From the NCBI GenBank assembly GCA_973895155.1, contig OZ316892.1, positions 22,111,168 through 22,175,167 of the forward strand: DNA of 64,000 bases, read 5' to 3'. Both the position numbers and the translations under genes were made by a program. Below the pieces are notes generated by a model. That model made no database searches and was not told the origin of the DNA. It saw only the letters and a program-made list of their open reading frames with translations. Below, piece after piece: positions 28,156 to 64,000 of this stretch (within the stretch, counting starts at the first letter, position 1; each line of letters starts with the position of its first letter). This stretch comes from Marsupella aquatica. Lineage: Eukaryota; Plantae; Marchantiophyta.

Positions 28156-28166
28156 AAGGGGAAGAT
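28156..28166 (+). promoter_or_regulatory. Polypurine tract
   Basis: AAGGGGAAGAT immediately before the 3' LTR. Confidence 0.85.
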
Positions 28167-28605
28167 TGTTGGGTATTTACTCTTACGTCTAGGTTAGGTA
28201 TGACGTGGTTGGTACAACAACGTGGGTTGGTACAACTACGTGGTTAGGTACAACTACGTGATTAGGTACAACTATGTGGTTAGGTACAACTACGTGATTA
28301 GGTACAACTATGTGGTTAGGTACAACTATGTGGTTAGGTACAACTAAGTTGCACACTATATCATAAGAGGCATGTGTGCTTGGAGAGGGAGAACCAAGGC
28401 TCATTGTTATGGAGCCACTTGAGAGATAGGGAGAGCTTACACTGTGGAGACTCGGTATAGCCGACGGGCTTAGAGTTCAGTAAAGCTCTCTTGTGTGTTC
28501 CCGTGGACGTAGCCTCAAGGAGGTGAACCACGTATCTCTTGTGTCGACTATTGTGCGTTGGATGGTTCATGGGCTTGCCGTTGCGATCGTCGTCTATGCT
28601 CAACA
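28167..28605 (+). repeat. Copia 3' LTR (439 bp; eight GGTACAAC cores)
   Basis: TGTTGGG...CAACA followed by TSD CCATT. Confidence 0.95.
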
Positions 28606-33087: not shown

Positions 33088-33294
33088 CACTAGAAGGAAA
33101 TCGGGATTTTATCACTACCTAATTCACTTGTTTCAGAGTGATAACGGACAATTTACAACTCAATGGTTTGAGTGCACTAATGTCAGTCGCTTTAGACAAC
33201 TAGTCGTATTGAGCATGAAGTCGTTTATAACAAGTACTCAAAATGTATGAGTGGTTTATGTCACCGTCGGTTTCAAACCCAACGGTCTTAAATA

Positions 33295-40604: not shown

Positions 40605-41279
40605 CAGGGGGTCCGTGAAGTGATAAGGGTATCAACAGGTCAAGGTCGAGGGCGACACGCTTTGCGAACATAAAAACACCCGAGAATCGATCTTCCAATC
40701 AAAGACAGAATCGTACCCTCGTCTGTTGCTTTCACCTGAATGCTGCGCCCGGTCGTGAAAAGAGATACAAATATTCTGTATGACTCTTCTCGCAATCATT
40801 TTTCAGACAACGTCAGGTATACATGTACTTCCAGAAATACGAACCACCAAACTCACGACTGAAAGAAAAGTATCTAATGACAATGAGACAGGTGTCCAGT
40901 ACTGTACCGTACTGTTGACATGTAGGTACCCGTTGACCAATTCCAACGGATATAAACGGTCACAATGGTCTCTTATGAGGAAATGTTTTTGCTAGCGACA
41001 TCGCTAGCCAAAAAATGACCACTAAATACATTAACTCCTAAAGGGTGTTTTGTAAGGATTTGAACAATTTTACTTGGTTCATTGAGCTAGCGAGATCGCT
41101 AGCTTTATCATTCCGCAAATAGAGTCATATAAGACAAAATAACGGTCAGATAACGGGAATAAGAGGCATTTATTAAATAAATACGTTGAGTCCAACACCT
41201 ACACAAGCACATTTCCTCATATGTATTTGGAGAAAGAAGAGAGCAAAGTATCTCACATTGTGGTTTGCTGTAGACTATA

Positions 41280-44200
41280 ATGTCCAAAACTTCCAGCATG
41301 TCTTCATTGGGATCGAAGGTTGTGATCGAGAGAAAGACGACGGGTGATGTTGTTGTTCTGGATGTTCCGGAGAATACTATTATCTCTGTCAAGGAGTCTT
41401 TTCTCTCATCGAGGTTTGGGCTTTTGAAAGATGATTTCATCTGGAAGTTGTTCGTTCTTTACTCTCGGGATGGATCCAGAAGTCACGAGGTGTCGGATAA
41501 TGGTTCAGGAATATTGCCAGAAAGAGCTTGGGACCTAAAGGGTGGTTCAGATGTAGAGCTAGTCTCATGTAAGGATGACATTGCACATATCAATGTTTCC
41601 GATCCAGAATCCCCGACTCGACCGTCACCTGCAGTACCAGAAATTATTGACATCTCCCCTGAGAGTGTGGGTAGGGATGTCTCTTCTGTGTCGACAAAGT
41701 CTTCTGAGAAATCCGTTTTTGAAGCAGTGAGTCAAAACGAGTTTCAATCTGAGCCAGTTCTTTATCGAGTTAGTGCATATGATGCCTTTCTCAATATTAT
41801 TGGGTCAAGCGAGTTGGCAAATTTCCGCAGGGGAAACGATTGGAAGGAGATTCAAGTGCAGACTTTGCCCACTTCATACAATGGAAACTGCGTTTTTGAG
41901 CTTCCTCCGGTGGAAGGTCAATTTCGTCGAGGATATGGTCTTCAGGACATGGATAGGGATAATGACGGCTATCCATGGACGAGACTTCTCACAACTTCAG
42001 CTAATCTCAAACCTCGCAATCACTGGTCTGTGTCAAAAGTCAGATGTGCCGGTGTACTTGAATGCCAAAATCTGGTCTGTAGAAAGTTGAAGCACACCGG
42101 TTCAAAAAATGACTCTTCCTTCCGAGGAAAGGGACAATTTACTGAGCCGTTTCATCTTGGTGAGCTTGTGGAGGAAGGAGGGTTGGTGTGCGGATTCTGT
42201 GAGGAGAGGCCTCTCTGCATCCGTGAATGTCCGGCTAAGCTTTTGTACGTCTATCCTAAGCCGTCTCTTGAGTCAAATGTTGCGAAACATATGTCTCGAT
42301 TGGCTGTTCACATGGGTTTCCATGACCACGTTGTTTGGAAGGGGAAATCTCGATTGGCAAAAAAGCAGGCGGAGGAGATAGTTTCTGGTGTTCATAAAGC
42401 GAATCCCGTGTGTATGTCAGGGCGTGTTCTTAACAAGTCTATAGGAAACCTGGTTTCTCTTTTGCATCCAGAGTCTTCTTCAGAACTATCAAAAGAAGAA
42501 GAGAGAGAGATTTGGGAATCGATGAAGGTTGTGTCCACTGTTGAGAAATTCCAGGCCATATTCCGGAGCGTGAAAATGGATAACCCAAAAAAGGGTGAGT
42601 TGGATTCTCTTCGTGAGATGCAAGCACGGAATAATTTTCCTTACGTTCAGAGGTACCTTTTCCCTGGGCAGGGGAGCAAGACCGATAGGGCTCATGTCTT
42701 CAAAATGAGTACAAATGGCCCAGGTTCTGGTGTCGATATTCTCAGGCAGATGAAGAGTGGAGGTGAGCTGGAAGGAGCATGGGTCAGTTCTGATATAATG
42801 CGGAGAATAAGCACTGGGTGGCTGACTTTCAGCGCCCATGTGTACGACCATAATTACAAGTCCCTTTGTACCATCTTCACTTGTGAGCTCCGTGCGGAGG
42901 ACTCCTTATCTCTTGAAACCGCATGGAGATATATGATTGAAGTTGCCTCTGATCATGATGTGCATGACCCACTCATTGGAGGATTTATTGCCGATAATGT
43001 CGAGGTTGGATGGATCGCCATTCGAAATGTTTTTTTTGGAGGTGTCCGTCACCCACAGAAGGAGCATAGTGACGCCTTTCACTTTGCTCAATCTCTTCGT
43101 CGTCACACATTGGAGGGTATTCGGGAAGATCGCCATCGAGAGCACTATAAACTGTGGGAAAGGCTGAGAACAGCACCAACATATGTTCAGGCCTACCGTG
43201 TTGCTGACGAAATCCATCGTTGGTGGAAGGAAGGAAACTGCTATGCTGGGAAATTGAAGTCTCTCCAAGGATGGTTATCTTGGTGGGTCGTGAGGTGGAG
43301 GCAGTGGGGGAACTTCATCCGCGTTGTAAGTGTCCAATTTCATTTCTCTTTGACGTCATTGTTTTTGCTAGCGACCTCGCTAGCATATCAGGTCTGACTG
43401 GGGACTACTTTTTGCAGACGCAAACCGCAATGGAGTTAGCCTTGATGCCAAATTGTACTGGAGCGGAATCAGTCCATGCATCCATGAGATCATGCCAAAT
43501 GAAGAAACTAGTGGGATTGATTGAAGCATGTGAGGTGGACCAGAATCGTGCTGCGGGGCAAATTGCTGCTTTTACTGCCTACAGTGAAGGTGTTCACAGA
43601 GGCCAGGGGCCGACCATTTTTGAATTAGCATATAGGAACGCCGATGCTATGGGATCCATGGATGCTTACGAAAAGGCAGCAAATCTTTTGCTTGAGTCTT
43701 CAGCTAAGTATGAATTCTATAGAACAGTTCCATTACATGGCGATCTCCGAACAACATCCACGAAGAGGAAAGGGAAAGCTTCAGCTGTAATCCACGAGAA
43801 TGACTCCCACAGACATGACAAGGTGTCACGCACAACAGCTTCTCCTTCAGGACTAAAAAGGCGTAATCTCTATCCTGAATTTCGCTTCGTCAATGTTTCG
43901 GAGACTTCTGCGGACCCAGAAGTAGCAAATAATACAACTTCGGCAACACCTGTCGGAGGTTGTTCTGCTGGAGTTATCCATATTTCAGATGATGATGGTG
44001 ATGATGCAAGTCGTAATGTCAATGATACCGTGAAGATGGGGACTCAACCTCAGTGTGATGTCGAGGATGACCATCGGGATGCCCCCCAAAGGATCCCTTC
44101 CATCCGAGAGGTTGATGTTCCTTATGGGACCTGGCATCTCAGGCGGAGCGGTAGAGGTGCTGGACCTGTTTGCAACGGGTCGGTTGACCGAAGCATTTTT

Positions 44201-44994
44201 GGAAGAGATGAATGTAGAAATCTCATCAAGGAGACTGGATGTAAGTCCGTGCAAGGGGGAATTGTTGGAGTCGCCATTCACGGGTTGCGATTATCGTCTC
44301 CACATCGCCAGTTGTTGTACTTCTGTCCTAATAATAAGTGTCACAAGAGCCGAGGACGCAGAACTCTAGCTCAACTACCCCCCCCCCACCCGAGTCGCTC
44401 AAGGTTCAGCGTGGGACTTGCCTCTCCCATCCCGAGATAGAGTTTCTGCTGGGATTAGGATTCCAGATCAATGGACTCTCCTATGTGGATGCAAATCAAG
44501 TTGGAGAGTTCCCGTCCCCCAATCGGGTCAACCTACGAATTGATGTTAACTCATTCCCCGAACGAATTGATCTAACTAATGTGGACCATCGGTTGAAAAC
44601 TCGAAATGGTAAGGGTGCAAGACAGCGTTTCAGCAATACTCCAGAGTTGCTCAAGCGCATCGTTTCCGCTACACAAGAATACATGAGAGTTGTCGGAAAT
44701 GAGAAGGTAACTACCGGAAATGGATGGGGTTGGAGATACTTGATCGCCACTCACGAGACTGATTCACAAGTTCCGCACACATATTGGGTGCAAATCTGTT
44801 GTTTCCCTTCGTGTTCTTGTGAAGACTTTTATAAGAGGCATACACGAGGGAAACCATACATGTCTTGTAAACATCTGCTGTGGGTGTATTTAAACAAGTT
44901 TTCACTCAACCTAGAGAAGGACGACCTTGTCAAACAGCCAATTCTGACTGTTGGGGAAGTGAGGAGTTTAATTCCGTTACAGATAGGGGACTAG
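41280..44994 (+). CDS. MULE transposase with GCM-like domain, DDE core and SWIM finger (intron 43326-43417; frameshift in C10 run at 44378-44387)
   Basis: GCM-like: DGYPW...VRCAGVLECQNLVC...CGFC...ECPAKL...GFHDH. DDE: WVSSD, FIADN, DAFHF (CxxH position), GAESVH. SWIM: CSCEDF...CKHLLWV. Confidence 0.82.
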
Positions 44995-45616
44995 TCGTTT
45001 ATTGGAGATGCTAATTATAGGGTGGTGGGATGGATTACTCGAGTTTGTGGTTTCACAAATATCAATTTGTTTTCACCGAGTGAATCATAATGTTAGCGAG
45101 GTCCACAATGGTAACTTTTATGGTGTTTGAGTTTTCTGTTTACGGTTAGCGATCTCTCTAGTCTTAGGAAGTCTGCTGCATCCTGACAGAAACATCCTAC
45201 TTTCATACGTGTTAATCTATCGACAAGTTTCTATAGAGTTCACGGTTTGATCATTAAAATGACGCCAGTTTTTGGCTAGCGAGATCGCTAGTCTGATCAA
45301 CGGAATTTAGGACAGGATGTGACAGGATGTTTAGGGTTTAGGGAGGGAAGTTTCCCCTGAAGTTGTTATGGTAATACTCCATCGAATTGATTATCAAAGA
45401 TGAACACAGTTCTATACTAGCGATATCGCTAGTCTGGGAAAGGTCCAACAGTGACTTCAAAATAAAAGTACTATGTGCGAAATGGCATTCCAGAGAAACA
45501 CATAGAAATGAAAGGACCACCCAAACTTTACTTCTCATACATATTGAAAGTATATGAGGACATGCGGTTCGCTTGTAACTACAAAAATTTCAGTAAATCC
45601 ACAACCTGACTCTACC

Positions 45617-46049: not shown

Positions 46050-47599
46050 TCTGCACTTACGAAACCCAAACAATGATTAAAGAGAACAGGATTCAACAAA
46101 TGGAAACATTATTCACGGTGGAATACGATGAATATCATGCCTTGTCGGAGAGTTCTTCCCTTAAAACAGCTCAAAGAATAGACCCGTGCTTACCTGAACT
46201 AGATCTGGAGAGTGTTGAGAACTTGGAACACTGATAGCAGTTCCGAATGAAAGAGATCAAGTCGGACGCGGTGGAAGTGATCGGGAGAATGATTTGGAAG
46301 ACTGGTGGTTTTTGGGCTAGCGGATTTGTTTAAGTGGACCGTTCGACGCCTTGGATTCGAGTCTGGTTCGAACGGTAAGTGTCCCGTTCACTTGCAAGTG
46401 ACTTAATTAGTGTCCAAACGGCCTTAATCCTCCTTTCCTCGGTAGTAATGACACGTTGATTCTTTTCACGCGGGAATCGCGAAGTACTTTTTTGTTATTA
46501 CTCTTCCTCGGGTGGGAATTTTCACATGTGGAAGCCTGTACGTGGAGACCGTACCTCGTATGAGTGGCTCAATGTGTTGGCATCATTAGACTAGCGATTT
46601 CGCTGGCCTGAAGATATGTCATTTTGATCTATTGCGTTCACGGGACTAGAATCGTCCATGGGTAGCCGTCTATATTTATTGATCGAACAGGGTCTCCATG
46701 CTAGCGAGGAATATTCCAGACCTTTTTTGGGCCCCAATACAAGGTGACATCTTGCCCGTGCGAGCAAAAATTCTACTGTTTGCTCGCACGTTACAATTAC
46801 CCTTTTGTTTAGAGGAAACTTGTCCCTAAGTATAAGAGGGAAAGTTTCCACCATTTTACTCAGACTTGCATTTCACTTGTGAAAGTCTCCTTCTTTGAAG
46901 AGAAGTAATAGATTCATAATTTTGGTGATCTATGCTTTGTGTTTGGACATTAGTGTGTGACCATTCTTGCTAGAAAATCTATGGAAAGTGACTAGCAATG
47001 TCATAGTTAACCTTTAGGCTGACTGGAAATGCATGCCTGAGACCATGCAAAGGTCTAAAGATTCATGTTGACTATGGAATACTTATGGCTTATTAAGTAT
47101 TAGTGGAAGAAGCATCATACGAGAACTCACAAATTGCGTAGTACTAAAAGAGCAATCTGAAGGATTGAATCGAAGAATAAGTTAGTTCGGAGTGATGAGT
47201 ACCGCCTTGCTTTGACCTGGCCATAAAGTTAATACGGGCTATCTTATATACATCTTTTACAAATTCTTAGATGGTTGGCTTTAAGGATTAGCTTTAGGCA
47301 TCAGCCTAATTTAGTCAGACTCTCTGTTGACTCTTAATCGTGCCTAACTTAGTCCTGGATTGCTAAGTGGCGAGAGGAGATGAGACATTTAAGGCTCGCC
47401 TAATCCTCTCTTTACGCCTCCGGCTTTTGGTTGTTTTGTTATAGTTTTAGAATTAATTATTGCACTGTTGATGATGCAAACATCACAATACCTGAGGATG
47501 TATTAAAAATTCCTTCCACCTGACCTAAGCATGTCGGTAAAGGCTTAAAATCTGAGATAGGTTAGCTTAACTATCTCAAAGTATATTAATATCATCTTT

Positions 47600-50499
47600 T
47601 AGGTCTCACAAGCTCTTAACGGGAACAAATTCTGGTTGTTTAAGAGGAAAGTAGTTCATATTTCCTTAATCCCTACTCTACAATATCGATCAAGTCCACA
47701 TACTCCATCGATTTTGGTAATAGCAATCACCTGCTGATCCACTGGTGATTTCAATTTCACCATGTCTCCTACTTTAAACTGTCACACATCAACAACATAA
47801 CACAGCCATTTCATTACTTAGACTTGTTAATGACAAGTTACAGCAAATAAACGAATAGGACATGTATTGAAAGCAATCATTTGCTTTTGCTCACCTTCAA
47901 GACAAAAGGTGAAGGGATCGACTTTGAAAACTCTGTAACAATGGCTTCTTCAGATGACTTTGTCAAAACAACTTCACGTGTCAAAGCTTCTATTATCTCC
48001 TGCAAAACAAATTAGGGTGAGACAACTTACATAAGCATGCCCTACCAGGTTCACATTACAAATTCATGGGATAATGAACACATTAATAGTACAAAGTTTA
48101 GGGTTTAGATGGTATTCCAACCTTATCTTTGCCTGCTTGATCATGCTGCGCAGGCGAACTGTATACCACCTCTGTTTCTTCATTGATCTCTTGCTTCACA
48201 ATCACTGGGTCATAATTGTATTCCATAGCAGCATTGAGATCAATCCCCTGATCATCTTCAACTGCCCATTAACATTTCAAGACATTAGAAAACATTCACT
48301 AATCCAAGTCATGCATGCTTGATTACACATACTTTAACTGTCCTCTGTAAAGAACATACCTTCTTTGGTCAAGTCCACCAAAAAGTCTAGTTTCACAGCT
48401 GAAGTACTACGGCCTGAATGACTTTTTGGAACTGAACTCATTCGTGAGGGCATTGAAGACTGTCCCGGCCCAACTGGGACAGTTCTGGTTTCTTCCAGAT
48501 CTTGACTTAGGCTAGGTTTTGTCAAAACAGTTAACATTTGCTTAAACCCAACACTCATCCCTGTACTTATTGCATTCACAATTGTACTCAACATATGCTC
48601 ATCACGTCCTTCCTCGTCTCCCATCATAGCCCTGGAACCTAGTGTCTGCAACCATTGAACAATCATACAAAAGTTAGTGGATATCACCTAGACTTGGCAA
48701 TTTGGAAATCAAAAATTGGACTTGTGAACTAATACTCACAATTGACTTTCTGCCTCTCCGATAAGATGGTGTGGTCTGTCCTGTGACAGATCTCACACTT
48801 GATACTCCAAATCTATCATCTTTTGAGCGTAGCTCAGACAGAGGTGGACTTTCCCCTCTTTTTCTCTTCTGAGCAATGAAACCAAACAATACATATTAGA
48901 ATGAAACTTCTTGCTTCTTTGCATACCAATTGCTAAAACAAAGGAAGACACATGCTGTAAGCCTACTTGTTGTTTACAAACATTCATAATAACTGTAAAT
49001 GAATCTTGTATACTTACAAAGTCAGACTCCTTCCCACGGTAGCCACCTTGTCCAACCCTTGATGGATTAATGACTTTAGATCTTGCATACTTCATCTTGT
49101 CAATGCTAGACATCCCTTCTGGAGACAGCCACCACTCACACAATGCCTTCCAATGTTCAGGCTTCACATTCTCAGGGGGCTTCTTGTCCAAGTGTCTTCC
49201 ACCTTCCTGAAAATGTTTGTGGAGTCTTGCTCGCTGTGCTTTCATTACTGCTGAACAATGAGACCTGAACTTCTTCATTGACAGAGTCCCCTGTACATAC
49301 TCCCAATCGTTCTCCAACACAACATAAACATGAAGAAGAACCCCTGAGTCTTGCTTCTTAATCTCACGGATAGAAGGATTCAGTTTACCCATACACACAG
49401 CACGAAGATCATCTCCCCAGCGTGCCCGATATGGATCATTGGGATCAACATCATTGTTCCAAATATGCACACAATGCATCATAAGAGACCAATAATAGAG
49501 GACAAACAATAAATCACAAGCATGATCTTTCACAAGCAACATATAGTGATTGCAACTTTCTTCATGCCCAACTTGCGACGCTCGCTTGTGTACTCTTCCC
49601 ATTGTTTCTTTGCAGCACGAGATGATTGTCGTACGTGTGTCTGTTCTGATCTTTCTGTGACAATTCCATCATCCAGATCACGAGCAGATGCTCTAGGCAA
49701 GGGTGTCACTACCACAACTAAACAAAGAGATTCTGTTAGCAAGTCAAACATTAATGTAACTTGTGACAATCAATCTGCAACTGTGAGAATCTCTGAACTC
49801 AGGATTCACTTGGCAAGTCAAAAACAAGTTCATGGCAAGTGAGGTAATGAATAAATTACTTACACACACTCACTTCCTTTGTCCTAGGATCCACATAATA
49901 TTTAAGCCCTGACTTTCGGGGAGCCTGAGGATAACAGTGTGCACATTCAAGTAATTAGTAACAGTAGCACCAGATTGAGATATACAGAAATTGGACAATT
50001 AATGCAATTATTTAGCTTCAAGTGAAGTAGAAAATGACAGTGAGTCTTCTCTTACCTTACGTAGCTCTTGAACACCATCTGATTCGTGATCATCACTTAA
50101 ACCTGCCCCATAATTTGTGTCAGCTGATTTTTCAGACTCATCACTCCCACTGTTGTCACTCTCCATGATTTTCTCCAGGTGCTTGCCAAGTAATCGTGAA
50201 CTCCTACGCTTTGCTATAGACGGCTGATTCTGTTCAGTCTTCTTTGACAACTTAGATAGACGCTTGACCCTTGCCTCACCTTGTAAACTGCAATCACCCT
50301 GGAAATATCATGAGTGTGAACCATTAGTAATAAAGTCAAGGCATAAATTCAAAACTATACAGGGATAGAGTACATACTTTAAATCTCTTGCAGCAGTTCC
50401 TACGAACTGGTCAAGTATAGCTTGGTTGGCTGCTATGTTCTTATTCCTCTGTGCCTCATAGGCATTCTCAGAACCTTTCACCCCAGACCGATCATGCAT
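47600..50499 (-). pseudogene. CACTA TnpA-like multi-exon gene (Transposase_24/Ptta-like)
   Basis: NAYEAQRNKNIAANQAIL at the N-terminus, PPENVKPEHWKALCEWWLSPEG...ARSKVINPSRVGQGGY, and VGDMVKLKS near 47750. Exon structure not fully resolved. Confidence 0.7.
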
Positions 50500-53400
50500 T
50501 TCAATTCAAAACTGCATAAAAAACACTATCACCAAAGAGCAATCAGTACTTCCTGCCCCAAGTGGCACATTCTCACTCTTCATCTGAATCTTCTTCATCT
50601 TCCCAGACATCATCATCATCACTATCACTTCTTGTCAACACTACCATCTCCTGAAAAACTACAATTTCTCCTTCATCCAAGGGCACTCGTCTGTTAGCTG
50701 CTGCAACAAGCTCAGCCTCAACAGCCTCATGACGATCCACAAGATCATTAAACTCAAGGTCATTTATACCCTCAACAACTCGTCGAGACCTCCCTTCCTT
50801 ATGGAGGACATGTCTCCAAGAGGCCCTGGCTGTGTTTGGGTAAAAGAAAACCTGCTCAATCTGACTGGGCAAGACATAATCTAATTTCTCAGCTGAGGGA
50901 TAAGCCAGTCTCATCATGTTTCATTGATGGATTAGACCTGTCCTCTCCCCACTTAGACCGCACCCACTTTGCCTTCAAGATTATGGCTGGTTCAGAATGT
51001 AACACAGGTCCATAGTCAAGCACAAGTATCTGTGTCAGAACCCCCACATATGTAAGCTTGGCCAAATTCACCCCGGTTTCTTCCCTGCTCTGCTCATGGA
51101 AAGTTGTGGCCACCCCGGAATCAAATGTAGCATATCCTTGACAATCAGTGTCCCTAAGAGTGGACATCTCACGCCATTCACCATTCCTATCTTTGCAGCG
51201 CATCACTCTATAATGGTTCCCAAAAGCCTTCATTGAAATGTAAGACAAAGCCTTCTGGCTTGGTGGAAAAGAAATTGCAGTCAACAACAACTTGTCCTCA
51301 TTGTCATCCAGGTTAGCCTTGTGTATTGTATCCCTGAACCACACTCCAAAAGGAATGGAAGCAAATTCAGCAGGACAGGCCATTGCTTGACGTCTGCCTC
51401 GTTGTCGTTCTGCATTATGCTGTCTTAGAACAACTTCTCTTTCTATCCTTTGCTCCTCCTCTTCTGACTCATACAACCTTCCAAGCAAGCAAAGAACAAT
51501 ATCAGATACCACAAAAGAAAGACTGTCATATTGTGACAATGCATTTAGAACTACATTACTGAACACTCAGACAGCCAGCAACAAAATGATGTAGTTATTT
51601 CATGTACCTGAGCCATGGTGCAACCTGTACATGGTTCTGTAGATAATAGGTGTGGGCAGCATCTTGATCAGCAACACTTAGAGACAATTTACTTGAGGCC
51701 CTTCCAGGACCACACCTTTAACCCCTGCCTCTTCTTCAGAGTCCCAGACCCGCTGCCGAGTTACTTCGCACTGAACCATATACTCTACAGTGAGAAATCC
51801 CAATGCCTCCTCTAGGATATAACCCTCAGCCATAGATGCCTCTGGTTGTGCCCTATTTCTTACAAAACCCTTTAGTTTTTTCAAGTATCTCTCAATTGGA
51901 TACATCCACCGTTGTGACACAGGTCCACATATATCTAGCTCTTCCACTATATGCACCATCAAATGTGTCATGACATCAAAAAATGAAGCAGGAAAATGCA
52001 TTTCCAGAGCACACAAAGTATGTGCCACATCTGTCATCAGTTCATCCTTAGTGCTAGGGTCCCAGACCTTACAGCAAATTTTATGCCACACACGACACAC
52101 ACTAATGATAGCCATTCAAGGTCCTGTTGCCATCAAGTCCTTCAATGCCAAGGGAAGTATCTGCTGCATGAGGCAATGGTAGTCATGAGACTTGAGGCCA
52201 GCCAACTTATTGCTGGCTCTCACACACTTTGCCAATGAGCTACCAAAATCTGTGGGAACCTTCAAGTTCTTCAAAGTGCCCAGGAACTTCTCCAGCTCTG
52301 GTTTGCTCATCACATAGGGCGCCTTGGGCTTCACAAAGTGATCCTTCTTATTGTTTGGATGAGGCTTCATCCATAGCTGCTCATGAATGCCTTCAGCCTC
52401 CATATCATTCCGCACAGCAGTGGTATCCTTCTTCCCAGAAGTAGTGTGAATCAAATTCTGAGCAATGTTCTTCTCTGTGTGCATGGGATCCAGCACATGG
52501 TTGATCAGAAGTTTCTGCATGCAAACAACAAAAAGCAAATCAGTCCAACTGCAAATTGACATGTGTGTACAATGCTGGTTGCAATATCTTCAAGTAAAAA
52601 ACGTGAATGCAAGTGTGATTTTACTCACCGACCAGTATGGCAGCATTGCAAGACCTTGTGTCCTCTTCACCCCATGAAGCTTCGAAGGACAGTTCTTGCT
52701 TCCTTGTTTGGCCCCAGGTGTTTTCAAGTACTCTTCCACCTCAGCAGCAAAGGCTAATTTTTGCTCACAAGTCATCCTTTGGGGAGGCCCCCGTGGCTCG
52801 CACTCCCCATCAAATTTTGCTGCATAACTTTGGGAGCGGTACTTATGGTTCTCCTCCAACCATGCACCTTCTACTCCCCAGAAATACATTCTTGGATAGA
52901 GCAGCAGACCTTCTGCAGCTCACATTGGGACCACACACAATGCATCCATGATATCCTTTTGTGACTTGACCCGATATGAGACCCAAAGCTGGATAGTCAT
53001 TCACTGTCCACAATAGAATGGCCCGCAGATTGAACCACTTATTCAGGCCAGGCCTATCAAGTGAATCAAAGCATGGAACTCCCTCCCAGAGCTCCAAAAG
53101 CTCCTCCAACAATGGAGCCATGTAAATGTCAATGTTGCGGTCAGTCACTGAATCAGGCCCAGGGATCAGCAAAGATAACATAATGAAGAACTTCTTGGTG
53201 GACAACCAAGGGGGCAAATTGTAATTCAACAATATTACCACAGGCCACGTAGAATGCTTGAGATTGTTTTCCCCAAAGGGATTCACACCATCCAGAGCCA
53301 ATCCAAGGTGTACATTGCGAGGCTCTGCTTCAAATGTTGGATCAATTGTTGTATCAATCTCCTTCCATGCCCTAGAATCTGCAACATGCCGGACCTTTCC

Positions 53401-53712
53401 ATCTGTGCTTTTACTGTCCTTATGCCATGTCATCAACTCTGAAATAGCCTTGCACCTATACATTCGTTTCAACCTGGGTATGAGGGGGAAATGTCGAAGG
53501 ACTTTCACAGGTTGCTTTGATTGCCCAACCTGCTTATACCTAGGCTTTTTGCACAGTGGACACTCATCGCAATCAGCATGCTCCTTTCTGAATAGGACAC
53601 ATCCATCCTCACAAGCATGAATTTTGACATAATCCAAGCCAGCATGACTGATCAGCTTCTTGCATGCATACAGGTTTTTAGGCAGCAGATTCTTAGCAGG
53701 CATCAACTGTTT

Positions 53713-56700
53713 TGTGGTGCGTCCCATGGCTCCCTAAACCCAAGAAACCCCCCAGCTCAAGCCGATTCTCGCAGGTTTCGTGCTTGGCGAGGCCGTTTCC
53801 GCGGCTTAGCGGCATGGGACGCTGCTAACCTTCTACTACTACTATTAACATTTTACACACATATACTGGACAGATCCTTCATCGGGTCATGAGATACGTA
53901 GCCGGCCTAATATAGGCCTTCCCCTGTCTTCCCCTGTCTTCCCCTCCGTCTTGTTAGGTATGTTTGGATTCCGCCGCCGGAATGATCCCCAATAGGCTTG
54001 GTTAAGCCGCTAAGACCTCTCTCAGCTCGACACATCCAACTCTCACTCCCCTGCTTACTTTCCTTCCTTCTGTTGATGTGGGCACTCTTCACACAAGTTA
54101 ATGCGACACACAAATAGCAAAATGACTCATTCTGACTGAGTCATACCATGCACTTGCCATACAAACAGTACATCTCATACACAAGTTCTGCGAACTAAGC
54201 CGTGAGGCCAACTCTATTCAGCTCTTAGGCATGAGGAAACATGAATATACACAAGGGTCACTGTATGACTAACCGAGAGCTTCTCGTACTACTTGATCCT
54301 AGCCTGGCTGGTGCAAACTAAAAACTTGCTAAAGAAGAGGCCCTGAGCTCCCCGCTGCCCAGGTACTTATCCTGGTAGTGGATCCGCCATTCTTTGCATC
54401 GTAAGCCTAATCTACCTGACAGTAATCTACTTGCCCGAATCTACCTATGTACAGCAAGGCAGGAGCACAAATGTTGCTCCTACCAGTGGAACCGCAATCC
54501 CACTAAGCTAAGTGTCAGGGCCGCTCCTGGTTCTGATCCTAATCCTAAACGTGGAGATCCGCGCCCGCCCTGCCCACTCACGCCTCCTCCCTCCACGTCC
54601 GCCCTCCCTAAAAGGAACGGCACCCTTGCACCGTCACGACACCGGTGGTGGATCCTCAATGGACGCCCCCAACACTTCCTCCTCAGCCACTGCCGTTGGC
54701 CCGCCTACTGACAGATTACCTGCCCTTGACCGAGTCAACTCTCCATCGGCCTGACTAGGTCCACCTTCGGCTTCAGCCTCGACACCGGCCTCGGCAATAC
54801 CCACGGCTTCGGCCTCAGCCACTCCCACGGCTTCGGCCTCCCCTTCCCCTAGGGTAGTTGGATCCTTAGCCGTGACCCTGTCTGGGGTCGGTGCTGGGTC
54901 TACCTCCTTGATCACCACGGCCTGTGAAGTCGTATTACTCCTTGACCCTGAAGGTTTCCGCTTCTTCTTCGTTGGTGGCTCGGCAGCTGGTCCCTTCCCC
55001 TTCCCACTTACTTCCGGCACTGGTGCAGTTGACGCGGCTTGTCCTTCGGCAATTACCACCCCTGGTAACTGGTTTGTCCCAACGGGAGATGGACCTGCTG
55101 CAGCTAAGCATTTAAATACTGCGGCTTGTTTCTTCAGCCGCTCTGTTTGGTTGTCGGCCCGCCGCTGTAGGTTCTCCATCTTCCTCGTGATTTCCTCCAA
55201 CTCCTCTTGGGTTTCATCCAGGTCCTTACGTGCCCCCTCCAGCTCGTTTTTGGCCTCCTCCTGCTCCCTGTGGGCTTCCTCCAATTCCTTCTTCAAGGTA
55301 GCCCTCTCCTCCTGGGTTGCTCTTAGCTCCTTGTCGAGCTCTGCAATGATGACAGACTCCATCTGGTTCATCTTGGCGTAAGTCTGTTCGACCATCTCGT
55401 CCTTCTCCCTTAGGTCGGCCTTGAAGCTGGCCGTCAGGGACGCAAGCTCCTGTTGCAGCGCCATAATCCCTTGATAGGATTTCCCTAACTCGACCTCCTT
55501 CTGCTCAAGGGCTCCACGGATTTTCTCGAGCTCCCCTTTCAACGCCCATTCCTTTCTTTGGGTCTCTGCCATGGCCCGGCTGTTGGCTGTTATGTGGGCC
55601 TCCTCTGTATTCTTCAGCTCTTGCTTCCACTTTTCCCTCTCTTTGATCGTGTCGGCCAACTCTTCCTGCGTCTGAGTCAGTTTATCCTTGATATTCTGAT
55701 TATCAGCCTGCGCGGCGTCCAACTGCCCCTGCATGATGTTCAGCTCATGTCGTTTAATCCGCAGTTCATCTTGGGCTTTCTTGGCCGCCCTTAGATCTTC
55801 AATCTCGGCTTCCATCCTCCTAAGCCGCCGAATGACCTCGTCCTTCTTGCTTCTCTCTAAAGCCACCGCTTCTTCTAATTGGTGCTTCTCCAACTGCTCC
55901 CTATGGAAAAAGGGTCCTACCTCCAACTCCTCTCCAAAGATGCCGAGCGCAAGTTCCCCACACATCTCACCATACTCCATGGCTCTATTCTTAGCGTAGG
56001 TGGAGTAAGTAGAAGTGATCGGCATCGCCCATCGTGGCCTCTGCTCCCAAGCCGTCCTGCGGATCTCTTCAATCGTGGCTAGAGGTTTGCTTCCTTTTTC
56101 GGCTAGCCGCCTGATGTCCTCCGGCCAATCTCCTCCTGGTAAATCCTTTTCCTTAGCCAGGGCGGCCTCTTCCTCCTGCTTGATTCGCTCCTGAAATTCC
56201 TGCACCGTCTGTTTTATGCCGTCAAAGCTCGGGGGAGCAACATCTGGTGGGGGAGACTCAGGGCTACTCTGCTGGTTGGGGTCCCCTCGCACTACCCTTG
56301 GAAGTGTGGGGACAAACCGGCCACAGGTCCTTACTCCTGGAACGTGATGGTCCGACCCATAGCCGGAATTATCATTGCTGCAGTCCTCCACTGCCTCCTC
56401 TACCTCTTGGACGTCCGGCTTCTCCCTCTCCTCTTCGTCGGTAGGAGCTTCAGGCAATTCTGCCTCAGATTCGGAGCTTGAGGTTCCCACGTACATTCGA
56501 ACACCTGGCTTGGATTCCGGCCTGATTCTCTCCTTGTTTCCAGCAAAGGGGTTTTCTCTTGTGAGCCGGTGTAAGCCTACCTCTGTAGTAGTGTCCTGCA
56601 TTGTTGCCGTTGCCGTTGTTGTTGCCGATGCCGATTTCTTTTCTTTCTCCAGTAGTTTCAGCAGACTCTGCATGCCTGGTTGCTGCATCGGCAAGTCCTC

Positions 56701-58348
56701 CTTCCTGGGCCTAAACACCTACTCGATCGTAGGACTAACAGGTGGTTGAGGCTTCTCAGCCAACGGCCTCGGCGTTGGAGCTTCCTCGGGTGCCCTTACC
56801 TGCAGGGGAAGTACTGGGGCAAAAGTCTGACCTCTGGCATACCGGCACAACAGCGGCATGTGATAGCCAAGACGCGACACGCTCCCCATGCCGATTACCT
56901 GCTGCTCCTCCTTTAAGATCTTCTTCAATTGGTTGAGGAGGTACCCGTTGTAGTCCCGGCTTGGGTCTGGCCTTTCTGCCAGATAGACCTGTGCCTTGCC
57001 GATCTCTGCCCTCGGCAAGTTACAATGCATGGTCACCCGCAAGAAGTCGATCATCTCTCCTATGTGTGGGTTGGTGCAGGTGTTCCGGAAGAAGCCATTC
57101 TTCGTTGATGGCCCGGGGAACGACCGGAACTCCTTGTCAGGCAAGGTCTTCCTGGTATCAACTTTGGTCTTATTGCCTATCGGCAGGCCAAACACTTCGG
57201 CAATTACCTTGGGAGTAAGATAGAAATCCTTCCCATATATCCTCGTGCAATTGGTCTCGGGTTCCCATGACCCCACGAATTCTAATAGGTCTGACTCCGG
57301 TACCTCCGGCTTCAGCCATGGTAATCTTACAAAGGCCTCCAAGCCGGATCCGGCCATGAAGCCTTGGTACTTCTTGGTCTGCATGGCCATAAAGCATGCA
57401 TCCTCCTCCCGTGCAAAATGTAGTTGCACCTCCACCGGTAGGGTTGCCGCCCAGCCCTTCCAGGTGTCATCCCTGGTTGGAATGGCCTTGATGGGATCGA
57501 CCTCCTCCTCTTCGGCTTCTCCCTGCCTCCTGCTCTGCTGCTCGGCTGGCTTCTTTGGTGCCGCCGACCTCGTTCTTTTTGCCGGGGTGGCTTCATCGTT
57601 GACGGCTCCCTTCCTCTTCATCTCTGCTGCCGTGGAGGTTTCTCCTAGCACCGTTGCCTGGGTCCACCTTTCCGTGCTACCCTTTAATTCCCAGTGTATG
57701 TCGTTGCAGTTCTTGATGGCCTCTCAGATGCCGACGACGCTGTCTTTGCAAAACAGAAGATCGTCGAGTTGATTGGAAGTAGGCGTCCACAGGAACTCGT
57801 CCTTGATGAGTTCGCCTCCTAAGAAAGCCGTCTTTTGCAGCTCCCACAATCGAGCGAGCTCCTGCCGTTCTCGAGCTGCCCTTTCTGACTCCTCGTCCTT
57901 GTAAGTCTTGATGTACTCAGTTGCCCGTTCGAACAGGCATCCCCAGAAATGTGCCGCTTGATTGACGTTGCTCATACCCTCCTTAGGTCGATCGTCGGTA
58001 TCAATTCTCTCCCCGAGTGCTTGCCTAAGCAGCTGACAGTAGTTGGCCTCCCGTAGTCGTCTGCCTAGTTCGTGCTCGCAAATGAGCCACCATCTCCTGC
58101 AAGCGCTCCTTACCCCTCTCCTCTGCCGGTCCTTCTTCCCGTTGATCCTTCCTAGCCGCCGACGCTTAACGCGCCCTAACCCTAATCGGGTTTTCACCCT
58201 CAGCCTTACCTCCGGCCTCTGCCCGGGTTCCATGGTTGCCCCTAATTGTTTATATTTTCCTTGTTTTGTCACTATACTAAGGTGTTCCTAGGGTGCCTTC
58301 CTGCTTTACCCACTTAACCGGCCGAGTGATTCCTGTCTAGGCATCACA
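53713..58348. mobile_element. Long coding LTR-like unit, copy 2 (4,636 bp, solo, inserted in TnpD)
   Basis: TGTGGTGC...GCATCACA termini. Perfect 5-bp TSD TGTTT at 53708-53712 and 58349-58353. Excision restores TnpD LLSLMGKQLMPAKNLLP. Confidence 0.93.
54634..58272 (-). pseudogene. Single ~1200-codon frame (PMD/Transposase_32-like domain + long coiled coil) with two in-frame stops
   Basis: ORFs 57724-58272, 56719-57651 and 54634-56718 share one frame. Motif DLLEFVGSW...IYGKDFYLTPKVIAEVFGLP, then an E/K/Q/L-rich coiled coil. Confidence 0.75.
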
Positions 58349-59293
58349 TGTTTCCCCATCAACGAAAGCAGTTCATCAACTCCAGAGTTGGTGAAACCAT
58401 GATTATGGCATTTGTTTAGAAATGTCAACACAAATGACAATTGGGAAGTAGTGAACCCCTCATACAAAGGGGCACACGCCTCTTCAAATGCTCGCATCAT
58501 CTTCTCCTCTGCCTATTGGTCCCAAATCTGAGGTGTTGCTTCTCCAGATGTACTGTCCGCCTCCAGAAGATCATCCATGTTGAAGAGACCATCTTCACTT
58601 TCCTGCAGAGTGGGCTCCTCTGCAGTGGTTTCTTGGACAGGTTCACTGGCATTAGCAGTTTCACTTGGTATTGCCAGGTCCTCTAGTATCCCAGGGATAT
58701 CTATGCCACAATCCATATCATTGGCAAGTTCCTCTGCACATCTTGCATTGTCCACAGGGCCCTCAAATGCACCATCCCCCTCCATGCAGCGTGCATTCCA
58801 CTCATCATCAGAAGAGTCACAGTCCTCTCCCCACCAATACCTTTGCGATGGGTGGCGAGAATTCTGAATGAGGTGCTTTTTGACCGTCCCTAGACTCACA
58901 CGATTACCCCTACAGTTGCAAATGTAGCAAGGACATTTTATCTTTGTCATCCCAGCAGCTCTACAAACTGTAGTCTGTCGACGCCATAACTTATCATCCC
59001 TCCTATTCAAGTCATCTTGGCTACCACGAAAGTTCCTCAACATTGTTTCAGCCACTTCAAGTCAATCCAATCAATGTCTTCCACTCAATTTGCCAGAATG
59101 CAGAGAGGACCCACATACCTTGCAACCTCTGCAAGCTCTCTGGATACTGCAATCCTCCACTCTAATGGTACCAGCACTGGACTCCACACCTCTAGGCTAC
59201 TCTGCACGTACATCCATGACCATATCAGAATACAATGGTGTATAGTCATAGAATCCCACTCTACTTCATATCAGATCTGTGAATCTTATCAGA

Positions 59294-59818
59294 TCAGTAC
59301 AAATACCACTCCTGTGCTTGATGATAGTCAACCCTCAGGTACTCAGGCAGGTACATTAAGTCATCTAAGTCTAACCCAAGATCATGCCATGGTGGTCTAC
59401 GATCTGTGCCTACAAGTAGTGGTTTCAATGCCTTCCATTGTGGGGACATGGCTACCAAGTCCCTCCATTGGGTACTAATGAGTCGATATTGGCAAATGTC
59501 CTGTGCTGATGACATGGAAAGAACTCTAGGCCATACATTTGTGACTACTAAATCATATGGCAAAACATGTAGCAAACTACTACATTCCTCATGATCCTCT
59601 TCACACCCAGCTTCACACTCATCTGCCGAAAAGTAATCCTCCTCCTCATTTGCCCTACAATACTGTAAAACAGATTCAAGGTTGACAATGATTCTGCCAG
59701 GTGGGGGTACAAATTGTCGGATTACCAAACCAACGAGCCAAACCACCACAAAATACATCCATGTAGCCACCCGTATGAGGGGTCTACATATGGTGTGGCA
59801 GTCTAGAAAAAACAACAT
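59294..59818 (-). CDS. F-box-like ORF (start uncertain)
   Basis: LLHVLPYDLVVTNVWPRV...QDICQYRLISTQWRDLV fits the F-box pattern L-P-x-D/E-L...I...L...R-x-V-(S/C)-x-x-W-R-x-L. Confidence 0.6.
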   Translation of the reverse strand: MLFFLDCHTICRPLIRVATWMYFVVVWLVGLVIRQFVPPPGRIIVNLESVLQYCRANEEEDYFSADECEAGCEEDHEECSSLLHVLPYDLVVTNVWPRVLSMSSAQDICQYRLISTQWRDLVAMSPQWKALKPLLVGTDRRPPWHDLGLDLDDLMYLPEYLRVDYHQAQEWYLY

Positions 59819-60428
59819 ACCAAGTGTAGTGTTTCACCTCCAACATTCACTGGTGACAACCTACAAATAGACACGACAATAAGCTCAGTTCCCTCATAAT
59901 CTGTACTTGCCACTCCCTAGTTGTCTCTTTGAGTTCATACTGTGAATTTTTATTTGCAGAAAGGTTTTACGTTTTATGTCTTACGTTTCATGTGTTTAGG
60001 ATGCTTCTTTCAAACTTGAAACTCTATTTCTACCCACAGACAGCAGGTTGAAGAAAATACCCCATTGACAATGCCCCATCCATGACACCCAACAACCAAG
60101 ACAACCGTATAAACACTGGGTCCAAACAGTTCAATCACATCCACAGTATTGACATCCATAAACATCAACTGGGATGGTCCTCATACTGGTATACATAATA
60201 ATTACCAAATAAATAAGTAGAGTTTGAGTACTTTGATTTTCCGGAGCCTTAGTCAATTAAACCCGGAGCATTGTCTCGATCCATGCTCATGCTAACCATT
60301 CACACAGTGAACAAAATGTGTGAAGAAAATGTGTGATGCAGACAAAACGTCATTGTTCCATTAACTAAGTGTATCGATGTCTATAGTAGTACTGATGTAT
60401 TTGAACCAAAATGGACCAGGCACGTCAA

Positions 60429-61082
60429 TCAAAGCCAGGAGATGTGATCATGTGCCACTGTGCCTAGAGCAGGGTCAATAGGATGGTCAGGACAGTTAAT
60501 CATCCAACGTCCCTGGTCATGTGCAATATGATGCCAGGGCACTCTGTCCGGTGCAAAACATTCACGCTGGCTCTTGGCTAGGCAAGTACAATGCCAAGTT
60601 TTGGGACATCTCAAACACTGCACGGCCTCTGCCAGATGAGGGTCACGATGGTCTTGCTGGCATGCAACACATGTATGGATGGGGCAAGACTCCACATCAA
60701 GTGGCAAGCATCCATGACAATAAAAACGAACACAATATGGCTGGGGGCACTGCCTGGCTGCAGCAGAGACAATGCCACACTGAAAACACCTGTATGTCTT
60801 ATCCTTACACTCTGGACAATACCAAGGATCGTCATCCTTGCCTGGTGCAATAAATACGGCAGGGCAAAGGCCGACAGCCTCACCAACTTTGGAAACATGG
60901 TGGAAGTGCCGATGGCAAGCCCCATCACACATGGCCAGATCTCCATGCCAGTCACAAATGCCACAAAGCTGGGGACTACACTGACGTTTCTCAATGTCTG
61001 ACCACAATTCAATCATCAACACATCTTCCTCCTTTCTCGTCCGAGTATCATTCTTTCTGGCTTTATGCTTGGTCCTAGCCAT
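60429..61082 (-). CDS. EDM2/NSD-type PHD-finger cluster protein with H3-tail-like N-terminus (217 aa)
   Basis: MARTKHKARK, then CGICDWHGDLAMCDGACHRHFH...WYCPEC...CFQC...CPIHTCVAC...CLRCPKTWHCTCL...INCPDHPIDPALGTVAHDHI. Intact, no intron needed. Confidence 0.8.
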   Translation of the reverse strand: MARTKHKARKNDTRTRKEEDVLMIELWSDIEKRQCSPQLCGICDWHGDLAMCDGACHRHFHHVSKVGEAVGLCPAVFIAPGKDDDPWYCPECKDKTYRCFQCGIVSAAARQCPQPYCVRFYCHGCLPLDVESCPIHTCVACQQDHRDPHLAEAVQCLRCPKTWHCTCLAKSQRECFAPDRVPWHHIAHDQGRWMINCPDHPIDPALGTVAHDHISWL

Positions 61083-63419
61083 TATGACCACTGGACATGA
61101 ACAAGAAAACTTGAAGAGTTATTAAACTGTTACATTGGATGTCATAAAACACGTACACAAACTCCCATATTGCAATCCAATGTGGGGCCAGAATGCAGAG
61201 GACTCACCAACTGTACTCAACCAAGAGGAAGGCAATGAAATTGGGAGATTGTCCTGATCGATTTCAGATGTAGATCTCAATCTCCTCTCACATCACAAGA
61301 TGTAAAAACAATGATTCATAATCTGCAACAACACAAATGTGACACAAAAGAGTCATTGGACTACATACATGCATCTGATGTTTTGTTTCAAACTCCTTCT
61401 GTACCTAAAGGTTACCTGAGACTCATGGAGTACTATTCCAATTCTGCAGAGGACAATAGGCTTGCCATTGAACTCAGAAAAATATAGACATAACTTTTGT
61501 CAGTTGGGAAAAAACCAAACAAATTCGAATGTGGGTAATCGCTCTCTAGTTTTGTTTTAGAGCGAATTACATAGCCACACTCAGACTACTACCGAACAAT
61601 TGGTGCACCATTTAAATGACCAGTAGATTACAGAGCCAGGGTCAAATTGCTACCAAAGGATTAGTGAGCAGCTAAGCCATGGGCATGAATCCTGTATCGT
61701 TTAAATGGAGCCACTACACAGAGCATTGGTTTGAGTTGGAAAGGACTATGCATAGACAAACATCACATGGACACTCTTCAACTTTCTTCATTCACAATAC
61801 TCTAGAGCCATAAGGCATATCTGCCGGGGGGGGGGGGAGTGGGAGTCATTGACAGAGACTTTAAGTATTGCATTCTAAATTCATTTAACAGTAGATTGTG
61901 GGCCTTCTGGAACAGAGTTATTGAACAAAGATGTTGAGTGGACTGGTGACATCTTAGATTAAAATGTCAAACTCCAAACGCAATCTCTCTATAGTGCCTG
62001 CAAGACTCTGAAAGTGAGCATTACGAGTCCTCACCATAGCTATTGTTGAACACGTCCTCTGCCCACGTCCACAACAGGTCCACTCGCTCCTAAAACTAAA
62101 CGACCATGGTTAAAAAACTAGAGATTTCATGACTGACCCTGAATTTAGTAAACGTTTTAAAGGACAAGCTCAGATAGGCTGAAGACTTTGAAATTCCAAT
62201 AGATGGTAATTCTATTTACCCCGCACACAAACAAGACTCCATTAACCATACCAGTGTACTGAATAGGAGGCCGACCTAGGGAGTAGGTAGCATTGATCCA
62301 AGATTCATAGAAAGAGAAGCAACAGCACGAGACAAGATGAAGAAACTCAAAACAGACCTTGAAACAGACTTTGAAATTCATAACTTACAGCCAGCCAACC
62401 AGCATAGGTGAAAATGAATATTCTCATGTGTAGATGCATAAGGGGACTCAAATATGGCCTGCATGTTGTCTTACGATAGTTCCACAGGGAATGGTTGAAA
62501 AAAGTGCAGCACAGGTATTGAACACAAGGCGAGAGCAACAAAACGAGCAAAGTTCAAGGCTTCTAGCTCTCCAGGGGCCGTCCACACTAGACAGTATCCG
62601 TGGGAGACCTCAGAGTTTTGAGGAAGGAACTGCAGAGGCACATCATGATGAGCATGGGCAATGTTGTTTAGTGCTATCTTGCAAGCACATTCATGAGAGT
62701 ACAGGTACATCTTAGGCAGAGCACAGCAGACGCCCTGTCAAACAATGCAATGCACAAAACAGAGAGTGGAAGAGAGAGAGAGAAAGAGCACATAGGATGA
62801 GCAGCCGAAGAGAAACTGTGAAGGAAGTGAGAGAGAGCTCCCAGAAAAGTGAGATTGCAGTTTTCAAGTAAATGGCTTCTTGTCTATAGACTCACAATTT
62901 GTCTGTAGTTTAATTGTCAACCCGTGATGTATAGAGCAAGACTACAAGACTTCCATCCTGGACGTTCATTCCTGATTTCAATGGGCATAAGGCACAGACT
63001 TGTTTCTCTCGTTAATATATTAAACTGGTCATACTTATAAACCAATATTCCTTCACATTCACATTTTAGCTCAAACCATGATCAGCCAAGAAGTCTGATC
63101 TGCCAGATCTCTATGTACAGGGCAATGAAGTAGAGCTCTCAATGAAACTGCCAATCAATCAGAATCAGTTTGTCTCTATTTCAACTGTGAACCAGTAGAC
63201 AGTCTCTATTTAAACAATTAACGTGGGACATGGAGAGGAAGACTGCACTCAAATCACATGTACAGTTACATAACGCAAAGACCAGTATGTTGAATAAGTA
63301 AACGCCAACTCTGCACTTGGAGATTGCTCACGCAATAGAGGTTACTTAGGGAAACTCACCTCGGTCCTTCCGATGTACTCAAGCTCCACAGAGCTAGATC
63401 ACTTACTTAGCTCCACTGT

Positions 63420-63512
63420 TGAAGGCTTGCCTTCAAGCTTGATTGGAGGCAGCTTGAAGGCTTGACTCGGCAGCTTGAAGGCTTGACTCGGCAGCTTGAT
63501 CAGAAGCAGCTT
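63420..63512. repeat. Short tandem repeat, 21-bp unit (GCAGCTTGAAGGCTTGACTCG) x2-3
   Basis: Two exact copies plus degenerate flanking copies. Confidence 0.8.
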
Positions 63513-64000
63513 TAAGGGTTAACTACAGCTTCATCGGAGGCAGCGCGGAAGTTAGAGACAGCAACAACAGTACGTGCGCGGAATCACTTTGTAACAGACA
63601 ACTGAAAACAAAAACATATTACCATACAAATCAATAGTAGACAGGCATAATGCACATTGTGCAGAATAGAAGAACTAGCAATGGATCTGCTCAGAACAAT
63701 TGCAAATGACGTCCTCCACCTATTTCATTTGATGAGGATGCATCTGTTCCTGCTAACTCTCCCGCTAAATCTGTCTGGACTCAGCATTACATGATTGAAA
63801 ACTAAGATACAAGAATGAAATAACTAAGCACTGAATAGAAGGATTATGTTTAAAGAGAATCATGACAGATCTGCTGGTCATGCAACCTGATCAATCCTTT
63901 GGAACTATTCAAGCATATCACAACAGCAGCAAACGGAGGACAAGACGGAGCAGGATGGAGCAGACGGAGGACATGGACACCAGCAGAGGGACAGAGGACA

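Follow-up and report, generated by a model that had tools for sequence, protein, structure and literature searches.

Beside the transposase of an En/Spm (CACTA-type) DNA transposon, the liverwort Marsupella aquatica carries a stand-alone gene for an EDM2-type PHD protein that opens with a peptide resembling the tip of histone H3. The gene is found in a window of 64,000 nucleotides of contig OZ316892.1, which is the whole stretch of DNA analysed here and to which all positions refer. We put at roughly 40% the probability that its product, P0001, serves as an accessory adaptor of the transposon, with an H3-like tip that would engage host H3K4 readers or writers. The features of the gene and of its candidate leader are as follows.

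60429..61082, minus strand: whole ORF of P0001, a stand-alone EDM2-type PHD protein of 217 aa (translation, homologues)
61053..61082, minus strand: start codon and H3-like tip, residues 1-10, M-ARTKHKARK (translation, shuffle test, family count)
61008..61052, minus strand: variable linker, predicted to be disordered, residues 11-25 (entropy 3.0-3.7 bits at motif positions 10-22; pLDDT <50)
60981..61007, minus strand: aromatic-S/T-x-x-E-x-x-Q segment, residues 26-34, specific to the family of short relatives (alignment A3 against EDM2-like sequences)
60441..60968, minus strand: PHD cluster (residues 39-214) that corresponds to the EDM2 PHD region and to NSD PHD1-3 (Pfam, PDB, EDM2 alignment)
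61091..61207, minus strand: candidate 5'UTR intron, predicted (donor at 61207; the acceptor, rich in pyrimidines, ends at 61091 and leaves 8 nt to the ATG)
61208..61322, minus strand: candidate non-coding upstream exon (acceptor chosen by eye; its ATG at 61319 runs into an in-frame stop)

The ORF (61082-60429) is a single open frame, and its translation reproduces the opening M-ARTKHKARK-N described in an earlier, sequence-only reading of this DNA; 7 of 9 positions are identical to residues 1-9 of H3, taken as M-ARTKQTARK from that reading. The ATG at 61082, which the same reading took as the start, is the first Met in frame, whether the candidate upstream exon is included or not. It is likely the start codon, because the frame of the ORF, once the exon 61322-61208 is joined on, meets an upstream stop with no in-frame Met after it, and because the Met of homologues sits at or near the motif (1, 3 or 7-8 residues ahead of it). 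The ATG at 61319 stands in the frame of the ORF in the candidate spliced product and is closed by an in-frame stop; in the main X3 and X5 copies, known from contigs of sequencing runs, a 1-nt deletion is found at 61315. In homologue P0003, the same acceptor region is translated in frame. Among the listed contigs of seven sequencing runs, of which X7 covers scraps only, no joint across the candidate intron 61207-61091 was found.

The body of P0001 is a three-finger PHD cluster resembling that of EDM2, as had been proposed. P0175, a protein named ENHANCED DOWNY MILDEW 2, aligns with residues 39-214 at 30% identity (E 8e-25), and this alignment includes the C-terminal segment in which a likeness to the end of the EDM2 PHD region had been noticed. 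The PHD region of NSD3 was matched in a search of the PDB (E 3.7e-7 over residues 38-169), which returned no solved plant homologue of the EDM2 PHD region. Pfam gives PHD-1st_NSD and PHDvar_NSD, both under the curated cut-offs. AlphaFold2 models the cluster with a mean pLDDT of 80 and a pTM of 0.75, and the fold search retrieves PZP and NSD PHD5-C5HCH structures with whole-chain TM-scores of 0.18-0.31, which are no more specific than "tandem PHD". We agree with the sequence-only reading that P0001 has no histone fold, none being detected by Pfam, PDB search, fold search or AlphaFold2. Residues 1-24 have a pLDDT <50 in one AlphaFold2 run, as have nearly all of residues 1-25 in the other, and the tip was left unplaced in both of these monomer runs.

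P0001 appears to be derived from EDM2, yet it is not EDM2. Only 38 residues precede PHD1, and the C-terminal methyltransferase-like ELP domain is absent, the stop codon lying three residues past the PHD region; most full-length family members end at the same place in alignment A3. The DNMT1-RFD domain, which Pfam finds in P0175, is present in 0 of 34 family rows of the domain search. Since the family lacks RFD-like and methyltransferase-like domains as well as the acidic run before PHD1, the specificity of EDM2 need not carry over to it. In the short family, the aromatic segment replaces this acidic run (window 60963-61007, minus strand), usually together with a His placed two positions ahead of the first Cys, and in the sub-clade of P0001 a W or F occupies the place where an acidic D/E-D/E-G-G loop otherwise stands. 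The histone specificity of the short family may differ from that of EDM2.

The relatives of P0001 are stand-alone proteins that measure ~210-245 aa in their complete form. Alignment A3 shows them to be 24-73% identical to P0001, and databases give them no names. They form a single clade, reaching down to ~30-45% identity, at which level the zinc ligands are still kept (alignment A3). A tree was built from 67 PHD regions, chosen by hand among 174 collected proteins (P0008, P0010, P0036, P0135, P0148, and P0171-P0173 being outside it). In it, a single branch (SH-aLRT 95, stem 0.51) sets 29 short proteins off from the full-length EDM2-like proteins. Two long branches join the short family to the rest, and the tree does not fix its attachment point. 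The best-scoring named long relatives come from Riccia, Calypogeia, and Marchantia. A search for longer fused forms gave, among 4163 candidates, two matches at E<=1e-20 (25-27% identical), neither belonging to the family, which is a weak piece of evidence. Viral contigs yielded no locus, and metagenome contigs yielded nine loci, eight of them distant and one, L001, a member. The latter (positions 529-1200) starts with M-S-S-ARWKAKSK, and its frame is interrupted by a stop at codon 22; within its 1867 nt, no transposase or F-box ORF was seen by eye and no neighbouring gene was recognised. A liverwort clade of six proteins (SH-aLRT 99), also devoid of the C-terminal domain, is separate from the short family. 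It includes P0037, a stand-alone PHD protein of 280 aa from Marchantia polymorpha (MARPO_0172s0021 / MPTK1_4g03050). Its residues 21-29, PRPKMKASK, lie 58 residues ahead of PHD1 and are nearly the same as the motif of P0161, through convergence or shared origin; tested on its own against shuffles, P0037 gives p 0.13.

Conservation at the tip was counted in the 30 members with an N-terminal region, after dropping the near-duplicates P0008 and P0171-P0173 and the truncated P0006, P0010, and P0036. The motif [AST]-R-x-K is found 29-48 residues before the first PHD Cys in 26 of them, the other four being motif-less. The longer form [AST]R.K..[AS] is present in 24/30 short-family proteins (mean of 0.29 and maximum of 3 in 2000 shuffles). 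Within 80 aa of PHD1, it also occurs in 3 of 100 long homologues, all three with D-K-x-x-A spellings that are not the family form, and a start M[AST]R.K is seen in 0/113 long homologues. In P0001 itself, shuffles of the 27-residue pre-PHD segment never reach its H3 score (0/2000, p 0.0005); tested separately, 22 of the 31 pre-PHD segments surpass their own shuffles in matching H3 1-9 (p<0.05). The shuffle figures overstate independence, since the pattern was derived from the same sequences, positions 1, 2, and 4 are the anchor of the count, and the members are kin; in P0157, moreover, the script anchored on a match earlier than the aligned one. The non-circular evidence consists of position 7 and the N-terminal register.

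Among the 26 motif-bearing members, position 1 is A in 16, S in 7, and T in 3, and position 7, which is not an anchor, is A in 18 and S in 6 (24/26 A or S, 1.22 bits). Position 3 is P in 11 and T in 4, position 5 varies (Q 4, H 2), and position 6, where H3 has T, is K in 16 and T in none. Positions 8 and 9 are K in 11 and 14 and R in 6 and 6, respectively, and positions 10-22 are unconstrained (3.0-3.7 bits, with 3.6 bits at position 10). Thus A/S1-R2-K4-A/S7 is conserved against a drifting linker, and the alignment argues that the tip motif is under selection. The conserved positions 1, 2, 4, and 7 equal those of H3; the apparent mimicry is of the K4 type, the K9 context (ARKS) not being kept. 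As to the sequence-only suggestion that ARTK..ARK is conserved, a motif is indeed maintained across a divergent family, whereas the full ARTK..ARK is not (T3 4/26, R8 6/26, K9 14/26). P0163, with ARTKQKAYK, is also identical to H3 1-9 at 7/9 positions. With its near-perfect match, P0001 stands at the extreme of the family and overstates the shared likeness to H3, because positions 3, 6, and 8 usually differ from H3.

The Met directly precedes Z-R-x-K in 13 of the 30 members, and these 13 occur in each of the four top-level branches, although the database gene calls of two of them, P0003 and P0031, begin further upstream. In the other 13 of the 26 motif-bearing members, 1-7 further residues separate the Met from the motif, mostly in two sub-clades. 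From this distribution, the Met-adjacent state is likely ancestral in the family, and from the extended forms it follows that a free A1 amine is not required.

The main alternative, which we find rather unlikely, is that the tip is a basic arm that serves nuclear import or holds on to DNA or to the acidic patch of the nucleosome (an arginine anchor). P0001 would then be a transposon-borne mini-EDM2 reader without true mimicry, and its likeness to H3 would be partly due to chance and greatest in this copy by drift. The prevalence of K at position 6 (16/26, T 0), the K or R that mostly fills positions 8-9, and the P that is the commonest residue 3 all agree with such an arm. So do the N-terminal extensions tolerated in 13/26 and the occurrence of T3 at three separate places of the tree (P0001; P0031 with P0147; P0163), as drift could give. 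Against it stand the small residues kept at positions 1 and 7 (24/26 at the latter), order outweighing composition, and import signals do not usually need a fixed residue order. P0001 is also devoid, by eye, of the import consensus K-[KR]-x-[KR]. An AT-hook was considered separately and rejected: its G-R-P core was seen by eye in 0/30 pre-PHD segments.

The tip could also act through residues 7-9, as an H3K9-type decoy (A7-R8-K9) absorbing KYP/SUVH methyltransferases or K9me readers or, in this copy, as a mimic of the CENH3 tail for centromere targeting, which we deem very unlikely. P0001 does have A7-R8-K9, A7 is found in 18/26 and K/R9 in 20/26, and the first six residues of P0001 are MARTKH, the conserved start of plant CENH3 (PMC9842635, PMC10264360), described as invariant in the former. 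Across the family, however, R8 (6/26), K9 (14/26), and H5 (2/26) are found in part of the members and position 10 is variable (3.6 bits). The A-R-K-[ST] form of the H3K9-type, or G9a-type, mimics (PMC8166343) is likewise absent from P0001, which has A-R-K-N. CENH3 mimicry as a family trait was rejected, H5 being present in two members; P0001, moreover, is without the histone fold of CENH3. The titration of H3K9 writers that the sequence-only reading had envisaged is poorly supported, since T3, R8, and K9 are kept in 4, 6, and 14 of 26 members and position 6 is mostly K, the mimicry being K4-centred. As the tip is attached to a reader module, we favour local recruitment over global titration.

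The place of the motif ahead of a PHD cluster raises another option, in which the tip folds back onto its own cluster, or onto that of a second copy, as a built-in competitor, which methylation or a preferred mark on the nucleosome would set free. The distance kept between tip and PHD1 (29-48 residues in 26/26 motif-bearing members) and the motif ahead of the PHD cluster of P0037, in another clade, are in its favour. The acidic residues located just before the first Cys of PHD1 in EDM2-like proteins, which usually bind K4, are missing from the family, and the motif is rare in long EDM2-like proteins (3/100); both points argue against it. A complex prediction of residues 2-31 with residues 32-217 and zinc scored 0.01, which speaks neither for nor against it. 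A precedent exists in BAZ2B, a histone-like linker of which lowers the affinity of the PHD finger for H3 (PMC5663869). On balance, such self-inhibition appears improbable.

The PHD gene lies on the same strand as the En/Spm transposase, 1.4 kb upstream of it. Downstream of the PHD gene, the following features were recognised.

59294..59833, minus strand: F-box-like ORF lying between PHD gene and transposase, 179 aa from stop to stop (Pfam F-box E 0.0013, 19 bits for a cut-off of 20.5)
58351..59061, minus strand: 5' part of the En/Spm transposase, with the transposase-associated zinc domain (Transpos_assoc E 0.018)
53713..58350, minus strand: unrelated high-copy element inserted in the transposase gene (79-81% match to 11387-15877; depth jump; junctions)
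50573..53712, minus strand: 3' exons of the En/Spm (TnpD-type) transposase (Transposase_21 E 5.9e-60 at 52846-53733; DUF4218 E 2.3e-34)
48334..50307, minus strand: probable TnpA-like second gene (Transposase_24 E 0.069, a weak match)

The transposase of this copy is broken by an in-frame stop (58513-58515) in its 5' part and by the 4.6-kb insertion that separates this part from the Tnp2 core. At 58515, each of the four runs has a letter other than that of the window, and the stop seems confined to this copy. In run X3, the contigs that cover the transposase 5' part, the F-box ORF, and the PHD ORF reach depths of 2433, 2309, 2400, and 2485 (the first two overlap by 30 nt), in contrast to 35.6 and 35.7 for the near-identical contigs 62490-62758 and 63470-63784 further upstream. 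In X5, the depth is 225-262 from F-box to PHD. The PHD gene is thus very probably carried in one multi-copy element with the transposase, a conclusion we infer since contig depth does not give a copy number and the two genes are bridged by no contig. Decayed copies exist, as indicated by an X5 contig of depth 2.3 with 19 gap letters over 60912-61090 and by the in-frame stop of L001. The two contigs that cover the ORF in the main X5 copy have 14 gap letters, every one of which corresponds to a listed indel outside the ORF; none falls inside it.

The CACTA carriage proposed in the sequence-only reading is supported by the Transposase_21 and DUF4218 matches and by the depth shared with the transposase, but not by terminal repeats: a pattern search, a self-comparison, and an inverted-repeat scan of the 64-kb window located no element ends. 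Matches to CACTA-type end patterns occur at chance level (7 against 7.4 expected; 7 against 7.9 in a second scan). The 5' end of the element likely lies beyond the window, since diverged X3 contigs continue to about 63900. Three contrary outcomes had been named beforehand, namely an upstream coding exon, an unconserved motif, and a single-copy host fragment outside the CACTA element; none was found. The unlocated ends, the missing bridging contig, and the decayed copies (L001 and the depth-2.3 X5 contig) would agree with a piece of host sequence that was captured, or with a host gene next to the element, in either case with no role for the transposon. This is scarcely probable given the zinc ligands kept at 30-45% identity, the main X5 copy with indels in its flanks and none in its ORF, the depth matching that of the transposase, and the long stem of the family's own. 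Pfam detects no DNA-binding domain in P0001 or its family. As to motif arrays of the kind that VANC-type factors bind, a 21-bp repeat of 2.5 copies is the only repeat seen upstream.

The F-box-like ORF (59294-59833, minus strand) has an acidic Cys-rich stretch before the F-box and a contig depth like that of the transposase; it is possibly a ubiquitin-ligase adaptor carried by the element. The inserted high-copy element (53713-58350, minus strand; also at 11387-15877, plus strand) harbors long coiled-coil ORFs without a Pfam enzyme match, and its ~590-bp end segment stands alone at 32510-33085. Two head-to-head ORF sets, 36640-40631 (minus) and 41274-44994 (plus), have no Pfam match at E 0.01. 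One of them possesses a D-G-N-H-R motif, which we take to be ParB-like, and a methyltransferase-like tail, and the other ends in a Cys/His motif, presumably SWIM-like. To their right, an imperfect palindrome around TAGCGA/TCGCTA is repeated at 45274-45297, about 45418-45434, and 46585-46608 (inverted-repeat scan, partly by eye); these are perhaps binding sites of the element to their left. The window also holds a Copia-type LTR retrotransposon (22038-28605, plus strand) with LTRs 92% identical and a coding region in three in-register pieces split by stops. Fragmented LINE-type ORFs are located at 17867-21808 (minus) and 30271-31884 (plus), with endonuclease, reverse transcriptase, and a C-terminal zinc region recognised by eye. 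A 266-bp tandem repeat of 3.1 copies (97% matches) spans 33288-34099.

Coming back to the accessory adaptor, the gene would be an accessory gene of the En/Spm (CACTA-type) element, and its PHD cluster would hold the protein on chromatin, by analogy to EDM2. Removal of the Met would expose a free A1, following the rule given in PMC8166343. The tip could then be read as H3 A1-R2-x-K4 and dock into host H3K4 readers or writers, which in turn may help to keep the element expressed. A broader proposal, to which we give less credence and which we regard as doubtful, is that DNA transposons of early land plants share an old cassette. This cassette would join an EDM2-derived heterochromatin reader to a true H3K4 mimic, dock on the silenced element, and recruit host writers or readers of the H3 tail, so that the element is reopened.

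Histone mimicry is known from viruses and host proteins; if the above reading is correct, it would become an anti-silencing tool of transposons as well. To our knowledge, few transposon-encoded anti-silencing proteins have been described in plants. What is new here is an EDM2-like PHD protein, likely transposon-borne, with an H3-like tip, the H3TM class and transposon accessory chromatin factors being already known. In the literature covered, which did not extend to subscription journals, Repbase, and supplements, no transposon-encoded EDM2-like PHD protein or histone-tail mimic was found, and the accessible text of recent plant transposon papers has no match for PHD. The motif is only nine residues long, natural variants with and without it exist, and the motif-bearing related gene P0037 is annotated in the model liverwort Marchantia polymorpha. 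P0001 would also provide a minimal, soluble form of the EDM2 PHD region.

Among known systems, EDM2 of the ASI1-AIPP1-EDM2 complex shares with P0001 the whole PHD region (PMC7529245, PMC9910501, PMC3632883). It binds H3K9me2 (PMC9910501). Together with ASI1 and AIPP1, it furthers the production of full-length transcripts from genes with heterochromatin in their introns (PMC9910501, PMC7529245). In contrast to EDM2 (1374 aa), P0001 has 217 aa and possesses neither the RFD-like domain nor the acidic run nor the methyltransferase-like ELP domain, whereas EDM2-like proteins are devoid of the H3-like tip of the P0001 family. The PHD1-3 cassette of NSD1-3 (PDB 7crp, 7cro) displays the same three-finger arrangement; NSD proteins, unlike P0001, have SET and PWWP domains and do not have the EDM2-type C-terminal segment. 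The linker of BAZ2B is likewise a lysine-rich H3-like stretch in one chain with a PHD finger. However, it is an internal, compositional mimic in a host protein, whereas the motif of P0001 is position-specific and N-terminal (PMC5663869).

The H3TMs, such as VRK1, BCL11B, PCLAF, and TSHZ1, are defined by iM-Z-R-x-K (Z being small) at a disordered N-terminus, and the pattern is found in 48 of 20,996 human proteins (PMC8166343). With its inferred start codon, P0001 fits through M-A-R-T-K and an N-terminus that is disordered by prediction, as the class requires, and 12 more of the 30 members fit as well. In vitro, H3TM peptides are bound by PHD and Tudor readers when K4-methylated and by NuRD when unmethylated; three H3TMs are methylated by Set7/9, in vivo methylation not having been shown in that work (PMC8166343). 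In contrast to these human host proteins, P0001 has its tip joined to a PHD cluster, is likely transposon-encoded, and adds A7 and K/R9, and half of the family has extra residues in front.

VANC of VANDAL (PMC5735166), for which a capture from host MAIN has been proposed (PMC13547354, bioRxiv 10.1101/2025.02.11.637652), TnpA of Spm, and PAG2/PAG3 of Plavaka share with P0001, as we read its context, a place among the additional genes of a DNA transposon, and the source of such a gene was likely a chromatin regulator of the host. VANC and TnpA bind DNA motifs and cause hypomethylation (PMC13547354, bioRxiv 10.1101/2025.02.11.637652, bioRxiv 10.64898/2026.08.24.746577), and PAG2/PAG3 are predicted enzymes (bioRxiv 10.1101/2025.02.11.637652). 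As far as these sources describe them, P0001 has no domain in common with any of them; it consists of a predicted reader and a histone-like peptide, with neither a DNA-binding nor a catalytic domain. If the proposed role is correct, its route would pass via the histone-reading machinery, unlike the route of VANC and TnpA through DNA motifs and DNA demethylation.
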